Assembly (NCBI GenBank): GCA_965214705.1
Contig: OZ243972.1
Location: 3,616,001 to 3,680,000 of the forward strand
Length of the DNA stretch: 64,000 nt
Direction: 5' to 3'
Origin: Alphaproteobacteria bacterium
GTDB lineage: Bacteria > Pseudomonadota > Alphaproteobacteria > UBA828
Under the pieces are notes generated by a model. It did not search any database, was not told where the DNA came from, and saw nothing but the letters and a program-made list of their open reading frames with translations. Position numbers and translations under genes: made by a program. This document shows, one piece after another, positions 24,898 through 29,937 of this stretch. The stretch's first letter is position 1. Each line of letters starts with the position of its first letter.

Positions 24898-26640
24898 TTA
24901 GTGGCCGAGGGCGACCCCTTCGCGGCGCGGGTCGGCGCCGCCTTCCAGCATTCCATCCACCCGGCGGACGGCGTGCAGGCCGCTCGTCAGGGGCCGGATG
25001 CGAACCTCGTGCCCCAGAGCCTCCAGCGCGGGTGCGATCCGTTCGAGAGGGGTGCCCGCCTCCAGCTCGGTCGCACCGTTGCGGTTGACGTGGCGGGGCA
25101 GGCTAAGCGCGGCCTGCGCGTCGAGGCCCCAATCGAGCATGGCGATCACCGACTGGGCGACGAAGCCGATGATGCGCGACCCACCCGGTGAGCCGAGGCT
25201 CGCGACCAGCCGGCCCGCCTCATCGAAGATCAGCGTCGGCGTCATGGACGAGCGCGGGCGCTTGCCCGGCTGCACGCGGTTCGCGACCGGGCCGTGTTCG
25301 CTGGTCGGGGCGAAGGAGAAGTCCGTGAGTTGGTTGTTCAGGAAAAACCCCGCCGCCATGAGGCGCGAACCGAAGGCGCGCTCCACGCTGGTGGTGAAGG
25401 AGACGGCGTTGCCGCGCGCATCGACGACCGAGAGATGGCTGGTGGAGGCGAACTCCGGTGCCGCCGCGTCGGCCCGCGCGAGGCCGCCGGAGCCGGGAGG
25501 GGCGCCCGGCGCGGCTTCACCCATTGCGCGATCGGGGTCGATCAGGCTGGCGCGTCGGCGCAGGTAATCGGGATCAAGCATGCCCGCCACCGGGACCGGC
25601 ACGAAGTCCGTATCCGCCAGGTAACGATTGCGGTCGGCGAAGGCGAGGCGGCTCGCCTCGCTGATCAGGTGGACGGCTTCCACCGAGCCGGGCTTAAGTG
25701 CGGCGAGATCGAAAGGCTCCAGCAGCCCAAGGATTTGCAGCAACGTCACGCCGCCGGAGCTCGGCGGCCCCATGCTGCAAACCCGGTGGCGCCGGTAGTC
25801 GCTGCACACCGGCGGCCGCACCTTGGCGCGATAGCCGGCGAGGTCGGCGAGCGCGAGCGCGCCCGGATTCACCGGATCACCCTGCACGGCGGCGACGATC
25901 TCCGTCGCGATCGGTCCTTCGTGAATTGCGTCTGCGCCATCCCGTGCGATGGCGCGCATGGTTTCGGCGTAGGCCGGGTTGACCAGCGTCTCGCCGACGC
26001 TCTTCGGACTGCCGTCCGGATGGAATAAGTAGTCGCGGGCGTTCGGAAAACGCGCGAGATCGGGGTTTTTCTCGATCATGTGTACAAGCCGGGGCGAGAT
26101 GGCGAAGCCACGCTCGGCGAGCACTGCGGCAGGGTCGAAAAGATGTGCCCAGGGCGTGCGGCCGTGAGCGCGATGGACTCGTTCGAGCATCCGGACGACG
26201 CCCGGTACCCCGACCGGCAGACCGCCGACGGCTGCCTCCGGCCAGGGACGCGGCGTGCCGTCCGCAGTTAGGAACAGACGCTTGTCGGCGGCGGCCGGCG
26301 CCGTCTCGCGTCCTTCGTAGCTTTCCACGGTGTCCAGCGCGGCGTCGTAATAGAGCAGAAATCCGCCGCCGCCGATGCCCGAGGACTGCGGTTCGACCAG
26401 ACCGAGTACCATTTGCGCCGCGATGGCTGCGTCGATGGCGTCACCGTCCGCTGCGAGGACGCGAGCGCCGGCCTCCGCCGCTGCGGGGTGCGCCGCTGCG
26501 ATCATCGCGTGGCCGGTGCGCACCGGGGCGTCGGCCGCGGGCGCGGCCGCCGGCACGCTCAGGACCGTCAGCGCGAAAAAGACCAGCGCGGCCAGCCTCG
26601 CGAGCGGTCCACGTCGTTGCACTACCGCCGTAGGACGCAT
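24898..26640 (-). CDS. ggt: Gamma-glutamyltransferase
   Basis: Signal peptide; EPQSSGIGGG, GRETAP, STSHLSVVD, LNNQLTDF, KRPRSSMTP, GSPGG, ADPRREG. Start ATG at 26640. Confidence 0.94.
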   Translation of the reverse strand: MRPTAVVQRRGPLARLAALVFFALTVLSVPAAAPAADAPVRTGHAMIAAAHPAAAEAGARVLAADGDAIDAAIAAQMVLGLVEPQSSGIGGGGFLLYYDAALDTVESYEGRETAPAAADKRLFLTADGTPRPWPEAAVGGLPVGVPGVVRMLERVHRAHGRTPWAHLFDPAAVLAERGFAISPRLVHMIEKNPDLARFPNARDYLFHPDGSPKSVGETLVNPAYAETMRAIARDGADAIHEGPIATEIVAAVQGDPVNPGALALADLAGYRAKVRPPVCSDYRRHRVCSMGPPSSGGVTLLQILGLLEPFDLAALKPGSVEAVHLISEASRLAFADRNRYLADTDFVPVPVAGMLDPDYLRRRASLIDPDRAMGEAAPGAPPGSGGLARADAAAPEFASTSHLSVVDARGNAVSFTTSVERAFGSRLMAAGFFLNNQLTDFSFAPTSEHGPVANRVQPGKRPRSSMTPTLIFDEAGRLVASLGSPGGSRIIGFVAQSVIAMLDWGLDAQAALSLPRHVNRNGATELEAGTPLERIAPALEALGHEVRIRPLTSGLHAVRRVDGMLEGGADPRREGVALGH

Positions 26641-26696
26641 CGCTGGCCCCGGCCGCTTGACGCGGCACCGGCGCTTCACTAAGTGAAGCCGGCGGC

Positions 26697-26774
<78 letters not shown>

Positions 26775-26971
26775 TTTACCTCCCTCGAATTGCCCAGAGC
26801 CTCGGCCTGAGTGGTCGGTGTGCCCATGCCGCGGCGGCATAATGCGGCGGACCTCTCAAGCTGCGCAAAATTCGACGTAACTACCCAGGTACCCCGCCGC
26901 CAGATCTGAGTGCGTGCTGATGTTGGTCGCCGCCGGTGCCGTTTGTCCGTCGGCGCGTCGATGATCTGCCC

Positions 26972-27000
26972 TTGACTGTATAGGCACGCTCGCCTATGGG
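26972..27000 (+). promoter_or_regulatory. Candidate sigma70 promoter for the MTase-transposase operon, overlapped by an inverted repeat
   Basis: TTGACT-N17-TATGGG; ATAGGC-N6-GCCTAT at 26980-26997. Confidence 0.4.
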
Positions 27001-27028
27001 TTGCTCTCTCGCATGAGAGGAGCAGCCG

Positions 27029-27698
27029 GTGGGGTATTTCGGATCGAAGGCGACGACCGGTCTGAGCCAGGCGCTGATTGCGCTGATGCCCCCGCACTCT
27101 GTCTATATCGAGAGCCACTTGGGGGGGCGGGGCGCTGATGAAGCGCAAGCCTGCGGCCGTGCGCTCGATCGGGATTGACCGCGACGAGCGGGCGCTTGAG
27201 TCCTTCGACTGTGGCTACCCGGTGGAGTTGGTGCACGGCTGCGCCCACTCCTTCCTGGCCTCGTTCCCGTTCCTGGGCCCGGAGCTGGTCTACAGCGATC
27301 CGCCCTATCTGCACGCGACCCGGCGTTCGTCGCAGCGCTACCGCTTCGAGTACGAGGAGGCCGACCACGTCGCGCTCCTCGAACTGCTCAAGGGTCTGCC
27401 CTGCCAGGTGATGGTCTCGGGCCACCCGTCTGCGCTCTATGACGAGTTGCTGGCGGGCTGGCGCCGGCTGGCGCTGCAGGTGACGACCCAGGCCCAGGTG
27501 CGGACCGAGGCGGTGTGGTTCAACTTCGCGCCCGACCGGGTGCACTGGGCGAGCTACGCGGGCCGCAACTTCACCGACCGCCAGCGCATCAAGCGCAAGG
27601 CGGCCAACTGGGGCCGGCGCTACGAGGCCATGCCGGCGGGCGAACGCCTGGCGGTGCTGGCCGCGATCATGGCCGTCGAGGCTGACGAGGGTTTGTGA
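27029..27698 (+). pseudogene. Small Dam/D12-class N6-adenine DNA methyltransferase, +1 frameshift in a G7 tract (possibly phase-variable)
   Basis: GAGGAG RBS then GTG 27029: MGYFGSKA...MPPHSVYIESHLGG. The frame shifts at 27121-27127 into the ORF containing IGIDRD, VYSDPPY, DHVALL and RTEAVWFNF. G6 would give an intact 222-aa protein. Confidence 0.85.
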
Positions 27699-29236
27699 CA
27701 GTGTCGCGCTGGCACGCGGACCTCGCCGCTCACGACGAGGCTTTCGCGTGCCTGCAGGACCTTTTCACCCCACAATCCTTCGCGATGACCGCCGTCAAAG
27801 CCATCCGGGAATGGGGCCAGGGGCTGCTTCGCCTGAGCGCGGCGCTGGTCAAGGAGAACGACGCGCTGGAGCGGGAGAACGCCCGCTTGCGCGAGCGGAT
27901 CGCCGAACTTGAGCGCAGCGCCGCGCTCGACAGCACCACCAGCTCCAGGCCGCCGGCCAGCGACGGCCTGAAGAAGAAGAGCGCAGACCAGGAGAAGCGC
28001 ACCCGGAGCCGGCGCGGCAAATCCGACAGGCCCAGCGGCGGTCAGCCGGGCCACAAGGGAACCACCCTGGAGCGGACCGAGAACCCGGACCACGTCGTGG
28101 ATCATGATCCGTCCGCCTGTGAGGGCTGCGGCGCGCCGCTGTCGGACGCCGACCGTCACGGAGCCCCCGTCTGCCGGCAGGTCTTCGATGTGCCCGAGCC
28201 GCAGCCCCTCGAGGCCACCGAGCATCGCGGCCATCGCTGCCTCTGCGCCGCCTGCGGCACCATGACAACAGCCGCCTTCCCGAACGGCGTGAGCGCCCCG
28301 GTCCAGTACGGGCCGCGCATCACCGCGTGGGTGACCTACCTGCTGCACGCTCAGTTCATTCCGGAGAAGCGCGTCGCCGAGGTCATGAGCGATCTCTTCG
28401 CGGTCAAGATCTCAACGGCCACCATCGCCGCCATGGGCCGGCGCACCGCCCGGCGCTTCGAGGGCTTCCTCGATCGTGTCGCAGAGATCATCCGCACCGA
28501 AGCCCCGGTCAAACACCTCGACGAGACCGGCATCCGCATCGCCGCCCGGACCCATTGGCTCCACGTGCTGTGCACCCCGTTGCTGACCATCCTGCGCGTC
28601 GCCAGCGGGCGCGGCCATTTCGACGAGAAGCTCAACGGCATCGTCATCCATGACGACTATGCCACCTACTTCGCTCTCGAGGGCGTGCGCCACGGGGCCT
28701 GCAACGCCCATCACCTGCGTGAGCTCCAGGCCCTGATCGAGATCGAGAAGGAAGACTGGGCAACGAGCATGCACCAGCTGCTCTCCCGTGCCAACAGAGC
28801 CGCCCGCTTCGCCCGCAAGAATGATCGCGACGTGCCCGCATCGCTGGTCGCCCGCATCTCGCGAGCCTGGGACCGCATCCTCGAACGTGCCATCGCCGCT
28901 CACGAAGAGATGCCGCCGCTCCAGACCGGAAAGCGCGGACGACAAAAGCGCCGCATCGGTCACAACCTCGCGCTCCGGCTCCAGAAGTACAAGGAGGGCT
29001 GCCTGCGCTTCCTCACCGACCCGCGAACCCCGTTCTCGAACAATGAGGCGGAGCGCGATCTGCGAATGGGCAAGCTGCGTCAGAAAATCTCAGGCGGCTT
29101 CCGCTCGATGCAAGGTGCCTGCGACTTCGCCAACCTGCGGTCCGTCATCGCCACCGCTCGAAAACAGCGCTGGAATGTCCTCGAAACCCTGGCGCACCCC
29201 GATCCCATGCAGCTAATCCCGGTACTGCGCTTCTGA
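27695..29236 (+). CDS. IS66-family DDE transposase (TnpC)
   Basis: Coiled coil, DSTTSSRPPASDG, GGQPGHKG, CxxC zinc ligands, HLDETG, IHDDY, CNAHHLREL, FSNNEAERDLR. Start overlaps the MTase stop (GTGA). Confidence 0.95.
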   Translation: MTVSRWHADLAAHDEAFACLQDLFTPQSFAMTAVKAIREWGQGLLRLSAALVKENDALERENARLRERIAELERSAALDSTTSSRPPASDGLKKKSADQEKRTRSRRGKSDRPSGGQPGHKGTTLERTENPDHVVDHDPSACEGCGAPLSDADRHGAPVCRQVFDVPEPQPLEATEHRGHRCLCAACGTMTTAAFPNGVSAPVQYGPRITAWVTYLLHAQFIPEKRVAEVMSDLFAVKISTATIAAMGRRTARRFEGFLDRVAEIIRTEAPVKHLDETGIRIAARTHWLHVLCTPLLTILRVASGRGHFDEKLNGIVIHDDYATYFALEGVRHGACNAHHLRELQALIEIEKEDWATSMHQLLSRANRAARFARKNDRDVPASLVARISRAWDRILERAIAAHEEMPPLQTGKRGRQKRRIGHNLALRLQKYKEGCLRFLTDPRTPFSNNEAERDLRMGKLRQKISGGFRSMQGACDFANLRSVIATARKQRWNVLETLAHPDPMQLIPVLRF

Positions 29237-29514
29237 AATCCCCCGCCGCTCCGCTCCACGTCAGCGGCACCAGGCCAGAGGCATCAGTCCATCACGCGTG
29301 AGTGCTCGGCGGAATCAGACCTGGGCAGTTACAATTCGACTACCATGTACGCTTGCCAAGCGACCGCAGGTATAGCAGCGTGTCGTACCGGCCGTTGGCT
29401 CATCAGCGTCTCAGCATTGGGCGGAGGGTGACGGCGGTGGAGGCCACGCGGGAACGGCTTTGGCCGGCGCGACAGCATAGCCCGCACGGCCTCTTATTGA
29501 GCGGGGACCGAAGA

Positions 29515-29937
29515 GTGAGCGCGCATCTTACCCTCAACATGGAAGCGCATCTCGACGAAATCGAGCGTATTCGCGCGGCGGTCAGGATCTTGTCGCAAGC
29601 CGAATCCTGGCCTCCCGAGCTCCTGTTTCAAATCGAGCTCGTGCTCGAAGAGATCGGCACCAACATCATAAAATACGGTCAGGACGGTGAAAGGGAGACG
29701 GACATCGATATCACCCTGACCTCCGACCGCAAATCTCTCACCCTGGAAATCACCGACAACGGCAAGCCGTTCGATCCGTTTGCCGATGCACCACCGCCAG
29801 ATCTCGACTCGGCGGTCCCGGACCGCCCGATCGGCGGGCTCGGCGTCTATCTCGTGCGCGAGTTGATGGACGAGGCCAGCTACCGGCACGAGGATGGCAA
29901 GAACAAGGTGACCCTCGTCAAGCACAAGTCGCTGTGA
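29515..29937 (+). CDS. RsbW/SpoIIAB-like anti-sigma factor Ser/Thr kinase
   Basis: LVLEEIGTNIIKYG, ITDNGKPFDP, RPIGGLGVYLVRELMD. Confidence 0.88.
   Translation: MSAHLTLNMEAHLDEIERIRAAVRILSQAESWPPELLFQIELVLEEIGTNIIKYGQDGERETDIDITLTSDRKSLTLEITDNGKPFDPFADAPPPDLDSAVPDRPIGGLGVYLVRELMDEASYRHEDGKNKVTLVKHKSL

Follow-up and report, generated by a model that had tools for sequence, protein, structure and literature searches.

In classical members of the IS66 family of insertion sequences (IS), the genes tnpA and tnpB occupy the position that, in the element described here, is held by a module built around a small, predicted DNA adenine methylase. Insertion sequences with passenger genes are known as 'transporter IS', and in IS10/Tn10 and IS50/Tn5 the host Dam methylase, acting on GATC in the −10 region of the transposase promoter, ties transposase expression to DNA methylation. 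The element lies in a stretch of 64,000 nucleotides (nt; the window, to which all positions refer unless a contig is named) of contig OZ243972.1 (positions 3,616,001 to 3,680,000, forward strand) from an alphaproteobacterium of the UBA828 lineage, and was singled out in an earlier note, made from the sequence alone, as a possible undescribed system. The analysis reported below indicates that methylase and transposase form a conserved, selected and exchangeable pairing, accompanied by a conserved promoter palindrome, which moves along with the methylase and had escaped the earlier note.

The methylase–transposase pair in genomes and metagenomes

Between the inverted repeats of the element, two genes with family support are found, both on the + strand, namely that of the methylase, a protein of 222 amino acids in its intact form, and that of an IS66-type transposase, the GTG start of which overlaps the TGA stop of the methylase by 4 nt (GTGA; in the sister clade, the spacing is 3–25 nt). 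The transposase scored above the cut-offs of both PF03050 (E 3.5e-39; 135 bits versus 23.1) and NF033517 (285.1 bits versus 180). The identification, in the earlier note, of an IS66 element with two overlapping genes, matched inverted repeats and a perfect 8-bp duplication was upheld. Neither tnpA nor tnpB was found inside the element, where the methylase is the sole gene upstream of the transposase; the element was therefore grouped with the IS66 elements with a single open reading frame (ORF), a subgroup termed ISBst12-like in ISfinder, plus a new module. With these it shares the IS66 transposase domains, the inverted repeats, the 8-bp duplication and the lack of TnpA/TnpB, but it adds at its left end a promoter-plus-methylase module of approximately 0.8 kb. 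No restriction endonuclease gene was found beside the methylase inside the inverted repeats, and PADLOC gave no match for the transposase.

Homologues of the methylase were collected in two sets of loci. The genome set consisted of the 80 closest loci, with methylase identities of 88–97%, from 14 assemblies labelled as Alphaproteobacteria, Dehalococcoidia, Binatia and Tectimicrobiota, many of which hold many copies. An IS66 transposase was present downstream and on the same strand in all 80 loci; both inverted repeats, with the tips seen in the element, were recognized around the gene pair in 69 and a perfect 8-bp duplication in 51, and the methylase frame was full length (219–222 codons) in 76. 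Thus, the co-occurrence of homologues with transposases inside inverted repeats, which the earlier note had proposed to score, was confirmed. The metagenome set comprised 80 loci with methylases 64–73% identical to that of the element. A script assigned to 52 of them an adjacent IS66 transposase, to nine a match elsewhere (further downstream in eight, only upstream in one), to five no downstream sequence and to 14 no match. Among these 14 loci, two encode divergent IS66 transposases, as recognized with Pfam, and one a transposase of the IS1634 family (NF033559, 8e-74). In two others the neighbouring genes are ordinary cellular ones, and in seven the downstream sequence is shorter than 900 nt. 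Overall, the methylase gene lies upstream of an IS66 transposase gene in at least 62 of the 80 metagenome loci. Both inverted repeats (GTAACTACTC[AG]CCCC) were found in 34 of the 80, delimiting elements of 2.24–2.34 kb; matching duplications were found in only 5 of 32 loci, a low number that would be anticipated for the metagenomic assembly of repeats. A one-off capture of the methylase gene fails as an explanation, because the linkage between its homologues and transposases recurs over many genomes and metagenomes.

The pairing also extends beyond IS66. In a metagenome contig (L122:16-3192), methylase gene and palindrome precede the IS1634-type transposase gene within inverted repeats of their own (16 nt), so that IS1634 is, by sequence, a second transposase family carrying the methylase cassette. 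A further metagenome locus (L124) appears to resemble this arrangement.

Contigs of three RNA libraries from two studies (X16, X17 and X18; one study coral-labelled, and another) cover relatives of both genes, and one X17 contig crosses the gene junction (27595–27827). RNA libraries may contain DNA, and a contig that crosses the junction is no proof of a single transcript, so that these contigs are not taken as evidence of expression. Within 26600–29600, the summed depth over the gene relatives was much above that of the flanks; these are host-specific and provide no valid control, so that the contrast in depth does not show transcription.

Exchange of the methylase and selection

Within clades, methylase identities of 75–100% pair with transposase identities of 71–98%; between clades, methylases that are 65–77% identical pair with transposases that are about 28–32% identical. 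In the transposase tree, three deep clades and long branches were obtained, the methylase-less siblings found in the host genome being sister to the clade of the element. In the methylase tree, the element-borne enzymes form one clade with respect to three plasmid outgroups (Shimodaira–Hasegawa-like approximate likelihood ratio test, SH-aLRT, 99), and nested inside the methylases of clade 1 are those of transposase clade 2, of the long-branch IS66 elements, of the IS1634 element and of two transposase-less loci. Constraining the clade-1 methylases to a single clade cost 72 log-likelihood units (approximately unbiased test, p 0.007), with the group defined from transposase clustering and with 'quick' LG+G4 trees containing some long branches. 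From the conflict between the two trees it follows that either the methylase gene moved between elements or transposases were swapped behind it. As judged from these phylogenies, the methylase is exchanged among distant IS66 lineages and the IS1634 element.

The ratio of nonsynonymous to synonymous substitution rates (dN/dS) of the methylase was 0.12–0.32 over 21 pairs and, in the sister clade, 0.04–0.18 over the 16 of 21 pairs with unsaturated dS. The corresponding values for the transposase were 0.15–0.56 and 0.08–0.19, those of the methylase being as low or lower, a pattern indicating that the methylase is under purifying selection.

The promoter palindrome

The left ends of elements of different clades are unalignable except for a palindrome with the consensus C-TTGACA-N-CATAG-N10-CTATG, located 55–81 nt before the methylase start. 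A pattern search limited to loci with at least 120 nt of upstream sequence detected it in 148 of 156 loci, corresponding to 82 distinct sequences, 70 of which have the N10 spacing; the half-sites are as invariant as TTGAC. The first half-site of the window copy is TATAG, and a putative −10 element, TATGGG (26995–27000), is found 17 nt after the −35-like hexamer and overlaps the CTATG half-site. The palindrome is also present before the methylase gene of the IS1634 element and, twice in tandem, before those of a Xanthomonas (L093) and a Shewanella (L190) plasmid; it does not precede the methylase genes of the IncP-1, Sphingobium and Acinetobacter plasmids or of two phages, and it is lacking in a methylase-less sibling element whose inverted repeats have identical tips. 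Since it tracks the methylase and is absent from such sibling, the palindrome belongs to the methylase rather than to the transposase. Across the host genome, the count of CATAG-N10-CTATG is not unusual. Several plasmid and phage homologues have the string GCTGCAGG right after the −10-like element. The available upstream sequences suggest that the methylase family has an old common regulatory region.

As in a 'transporter IS', inverted repeats bound an element that holds a gene other than that of the transposase. Here, however, the passenger is conserved across a large radiation, selected and swapped between transposase lineages, and it is placed as the promoter-proximal gene of the presumed transposase operon.

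A Dam-type fold without the recognition domain

In the repaired, 222-residue form of the methylase the sequences GYFGSK, ESHLGGGA (residues 28–35), IGID, DPPY (residues 90–93) and DRQRIKRKAANWGRRY are found, and G5, H23, G32, D90, P91, P92, H113 and S130 are invariant in an alignment of 44 family members. The motifs named in the earlier note, with DPPY at about residue 90, and its basic helical C-terminal tail were all recovered in this form of the protein and in its structural model. The scores fall below the thresholds of both the D12-class family PF02086 (14.6 bits versus a cut-off of 22) and TIGR00571 (E 7e-6; 25.8 bits versus 114.85). When the profile of the 44 members was compared with solved structures, DpnM (1.8e-8), E. 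coli Dam (3e-5) and T4 Dam (0.06) were retrieved. The alignment with DpnM is made of two blocks (query residues 5–60 and 80–156) that skip DpnM residues 73–183, so that, in place of approximately 110 residues of the Dam target-recognition region, located between motifs II/III and IV, the query has about 19. The AlphaFold model is a confident single Rossmann-type domain (mean predicted local distance difference test score, pLDDT, 91.8), in which the replaced region forms a single strand–helix unit and two long helices (residues 181–221) end the chain; the first of these contains the basic segment DRQRIKRKA, and the tail was also predicted to be helical at residues 181–200. In a Foldseek comparison with the PDB, E. 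coli Dam, Mcbe1 and DpnM ranked at the top, at TM (template modelling) scores of about 0.5. As the two-block profile match, the model and Foldseek agree, the accessory gene can be taken to encode, as proposed in the earlier note, a methylase with the Dam fold and without the target-recognition domain. With the D12-class, alpha-group enzymes (E. coli Dam, DpnM and T4 Dam) the protein shares the order of motif X (GSK), motif I (E-x-h-L-G-G-G-A), motif II and DPPY; it differs from them for the family scores below the cut-offs and for the addition of the basic C-terminal two-helix hairpin, which is conserved and, judging from the model, could bind DNA unaided. PHROGs and PADLOC both class it with DNA methylases (PADLOC Type II methylase model, 3.6e-21).

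The protein family is large, with 3750 clusters at 90% identity (E within 1e-3) and 6013 clusters at 50% identity (E up to 1e-3). Among 400 random genomes of the same phylum, a distant homologue was found in just two. The host genome also contains a canonical D12-class methylase (C3:2999166-2999825; 87 bits, above the Pfam cut-off), and the element-borne enzyme is thus not the sole Dam-type enzyme of the cell.

Plasmid and phage relatives

Relatives of the methylase were found in 198 plasmid records, all at less than 60% identity, 134 of which are typed as conjugative. The full-length ones (approx. 220 residues) are 42–54% identical over 96–98% of the query and include Upf31.0 of IncP-1 plasmids and the 'DNA adenine methylase' of Xanthomonas, Sphingobium, Shewanella and Acinetobacter plasmids; copies 45–49% identical occur in P2-like phages of Klebsiella and Salmonella. 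In seven plasmid or phage records that were examined (five from plasmids), the methylase gene is neither beside an IS66-type transposase gene nor inside inverted repeats; in the Sphingobium plasmid, the transposase gene of the IS1380-like ISSp1 lies about 200 nt downstream. In the passages that deal with it in two papers, Upf31.0 is termed just a putative site-specific methylase (PMC6266692, PMC4914505). The element-borne and the orphan enzymes belong to one family of approximately 220-residue proteins, two plasmid members of which have the CATAG-N10-CTATG palindrome, but those linked to the elements form a clade of their own (SH-aLRT, 99). By sequence similarity, both the methylase and the transposase families are therefore known ones, and the suggestion of an undescribed system does not extend to the protein family. 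It may hold for the arrangement, inasmuch as literature searches, with ISfinder, TnPedia and REBASE outside their scope, retrieved no paper on an IS66 or IS1634 element in which the accessory gene encodes a methylase. The conserved, selected and exchangeable methylase–transposase pairing with its own promoter palindrome appears to be undescribed.

Anatomy of the element and its copies in the host genome

The insertion element proper (26877–29332; 2456 bp), which becomes 26869–29340 when both copies of the 8-bp duplication are included, is located approximately 100 nt downstream of a tRNA-His gene (26698–26774). The terminal inverted repeats, GTAACTACCCAGGT and GTAACTGCCCAGGT, match at 13 of 14 positions. 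The positions of the features are collected in table 1.

Table 1. Features of the methylase-bearing IS66 element in the window and of two methylase-less siblings in the host genome.
Feature	Position	Strand	Remarks
Left target-site duplication copy, AATTCGAC	26869–26876	.	identical to 29333–29340
Left terminal inverted repeat, GTAACTACCCAGGT	26877–26890	+	14-nt pair, 93%
Promoter-like palindrome, window copy	26972–27000	+	TTGACT 26972–26977, TATAG 26979–26983, 10 nt, CTATG 26994–26998
Putative ribosome-binding site, GAGGAG	27017–27022	+	6 nt before the methylase GTG start; read from the sequence
Predicted small Dam-related N6-adenine methylase gene, frameshifted here	27029–27698	+	ORFs 27029–27178 (49 aa) and 27138–27698 (186 aa)
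G7 homopolymer in the codons of SAM-binding motif I (LGGGA), cause of the frameshift	27121–27127	+	G6 in intact copies
IS66-family DDE transposase gene, 513 aa	27695–29236	+	DUF6444, zf-IS66 (weak), DDE_Tnp_IS66
Right terminal inverted repeat, reverse complement GTAACTGCCCAGGT	29319–29332	−	inverted-repeat pair
Right target-site duplication copy, AATTCGAC	29333–29340	.	perfect 8-bp match
Sibling locus (element at 1128–2793 of the locus)	C1:2605500-2609800	.	single-ORF IS66, no methylase, no CATAG palindrome
Sibling locus (element at 1137–2817 of the locus)	C1:43000-47000	.	single-ORF IS66, no methylase, no CATAG palindrome

The host genome (7.9 Mb in three contigs; 67% G+C) contains 12 full-length copies of the element, fragments and two copies diverged to 82%, and every methylase match in it either adjoins a transposase gene of the IS66 type or lies in a fragment of the element. 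The element is active and multi-copy. In all 12 full copies the 8-bp duplications are perfect and mutually different, a regularity that goes beyond chance. The duplicated octamers are often A+T-rich (e.g. GAAAAATC, AAATATTC and TAATTATT) in genomes of about 67% G+C, a feature that may point to A+T-rich or intergenic sequences as preferred targets.

In seven of the 12 full copies, a run of six G residues leaves the 222-residue methylase frame intact; in the other five, including that of the window, a seventh G causes a frameshift. The G7 copies differ pairwise at 0–1 positions, as do six of the G6 copies, the seventh of which is older (16–17 differences from the other six), and the two sub-lineages differ at 12–14 positions. 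The form one base shorter at 27121 was also seen in contigs of all four public sequencing runs. G6, which keeps the frame intact, is an allele that occurs naturally. As both forms recently transposed, an intact methylase gene in cis is not required for transposition. Programmed frameshifting at the G run was considered and rejected, given the intact G6 copies in the same genome and the in-frame genes at 76 of the 80 related loci.

Structural variation was observed among the host copies (C1:2066576-2071152, C3:2819842-2822350, C2:50068, C3:2219079 and C3:2961265). One copy is interrupted by an insertion of approximately 2.1 kb, in another the transposase frame is disrupted by an insertion of 32 nt, and four have a 21-nt (7-codon) insertion in the transposase gene. 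At C1:1549935-1556339, two identical relatives diverged to 82%, each with a methylase gene and a frameshifted transposase gene, are in inverted orientation with the methylase ends inward and enclose approximately 1.7 kb with an ORF of 177 codons; the pair may represent either an inverted duplication or a composite arrangement.

About 13 methylase-less siblings of the element, of approximately 1.67 kb and with the transposase gene only, are also present in the host genome. Their transposases, whose frames were taken from the tblastn frame on account of the GC-rich DNA, are 56–59% identical to that of the element, and their inverted-repeat tips (GTAACTGCCCAGGT) are the same, so that cross-mobilization between methylase-bearing and methylase-less elements seems possible.

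Possible roles of the methylase

By analogy with IS10 and IS50, we propose, giving the idea an even chance of being correct, that the methylase cassette is self-regulated and that it drives and gates the expression of the transposase. A cassette made of the promoter-like palindrome and the 222-residue methylase was acquired at the left end of a single-ORF IS66 element; both genes would be transcribed from the cassette promoter. The methylase would then act back on its own promoter, either by methylating the adenines of CATAG/CTATG, where one half-site shares bases with the −10 element, or through binding to the palindrome. Transposase output would be high when the element has newly arrived in a naive cell without methylation or when replication has only just occurred, and it would be damped once the methylase accumulates or the copy number rises, being set by the methylation state and by the methylase dose. 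Genome-wide methylation by the same enzyme may also protect the DNA that carries the element. The proposed logic is that of the Dam control of IS10 and IS50, with adenine methylation sites in the −10 region of the transposase promoter; it differs in that the element would bring both the methylase and the site. To our knowledge, and within our literature searches, control of transposition by self-encoded methylation has not been described.

Several observations weigh against this proposal. The putative feedback loop is drawn from the architecture of the element and from analogy with IS10 and IS50. The frameshifted clade has spread to five sites, showing that the methylase is dispensable, at least if supplied in trans, and the siblings that lack the methylase but share the inverted-repeat tips have likewise attained about 13 copies in the host. 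The palindrome is missing in five of the seven plasmid or phage homologues examined, and the centre-to-centre distance of 15 bp between its half-sites is not one that a dimeric repressor usually spans. The frequency of CATAG/CTATG in the host genome is not unusual (observed/expected, 1.18). Finally, a simple promoter scan of the window listed no sigma-70-type site at the palindrome, as its rule demands a T at the last position of the −10 element, here TATGGG; the promoter assignment is thus based on conservation within the family and not on the scan.

The main rival, which we hold possible, if rather doubtful, is that the methylase is anti-restriction cargo, namely an orphan enzyme, possibly of relaxed specificity given that the Dam recognition domain is missing, that would pre-methylate the host chromosome and the carrier plasmid or phage, improving the survival of this DNA in recipients equipped with restriction systems, without a role in transposition or its control. 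The 42–54% identical relatives on plasmids (134 of 198 records conjugative, with IncP-1 Upf31.0 among them), adjoining transfer and anti-restriction-type genes, their presence in P2-like phages, the match with the PADLOC Type II methylase model and the ability of the elements to transpose when the methylase in cis is not intact are all consistent with it. However, such a role would leave unexplained both the near-constant placement of the gene immediately before that of the transposase, in the same orientation and at a short distance, and the strict keeping of the promoter palindrome, and an element moving within one cell would be protected just indirectly. Cargo of this kind and promoter control are compatible rather than exclusive. 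It is highly unlikely, in our view, that the methylase was captured by chance and is a passenger, neutral or in decay, without a selected function. The G7 frameshift in five of the 12 host copies would fit such an origin, as would the many database clusters that start at residue 37, the start expected of the truncated form. This view is largely refuted by the signatures of selection in the gene, whose dN/dS values (0.04–0.32) are as low as or below those of the transposase, whose frame is of full length (219–222 codons) in 76 of the 80 genome loci and whose product conserves the catalytic DPPY; moreover, the pairing was kept across transposase divergence down to 28% identity.

The earlier note had also raised the possibility that the methylase is directed by the transposase, and recruitment by the latter to mark the ends of the element or the transpososome would be compatible with coupled synthesis through the GTGA overlap and with a methylase devoid of the Dam recognition domain. 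We consider this very improbable, and the idea that the transposase directs the enzyme found no support and became less likely, as methylases that are 65–77% identical pair with transposases of about 28–32% identity and with one of the IS1634 family. Furthermore, homologues occur on plasmids and phages without such a transposase, and in the model the conserved basic helical hairpin could bind DNA alone. The predicted transposase–methylase complex (score 0.00, with the mark at 0.32) gave no evidence either way. Modification of RNA or protein rather than DNA, as by some (D/N)PPY enzymes, would accord with the scores below the family cut-offs (14.6 versus 22 and 25.8 versus 114.85) and with the RNA methylases TGS1, Trm11 and RlmL that Foldseek also lists at similar scores. 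It is scarcely probable, as the best matches in sequence and fold are the DNA adenine methylases DpnM, E. coli Dam, T4 Dam and Mcbe1, PHROGs and PADLOC place the protein with DNA methylases, and the genomic contexts are mobile DNA.

The proposal of a self-regulated cassette that gates transposase expression can be extended to a broader and, in our opinion, unlikely form, in which palindromic promoter and methylase would constitute a portable epigenetic switch, captured repeatedly by unrelated transposases and by some plasmids, that would sense a new host, just-replicated DNA or copy number to gate the transposase. Its captors would be at least four deep IS66 lineages and the IS1634 element, and the methylase would read its site without a classical recognition domain.

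Concluding remarks

Little is understood of the accessory genes of IS66 elements, and the methylase may allow the element to control or protect itself by means of methylation. If the portable switch were real, it would be the first transposon-encoded equivalent of the control exerted by host Dam, and its enzyme would be a natural minimal adenine methylase able to read a site without the classical recognition domain. The pairing is abundant and multi-copy in many environmental genomes, with the gene under selection, so that its study could bring to light a regulatory logic new to mobile DNA. The way in which a Dam-fold enzyme of only 222 residues recognizes DNA without the usual domain could likewise become clear, which would be relevant to methylase engineering, as well as to the interpretation of orphan methylation motifs in metagenomes.

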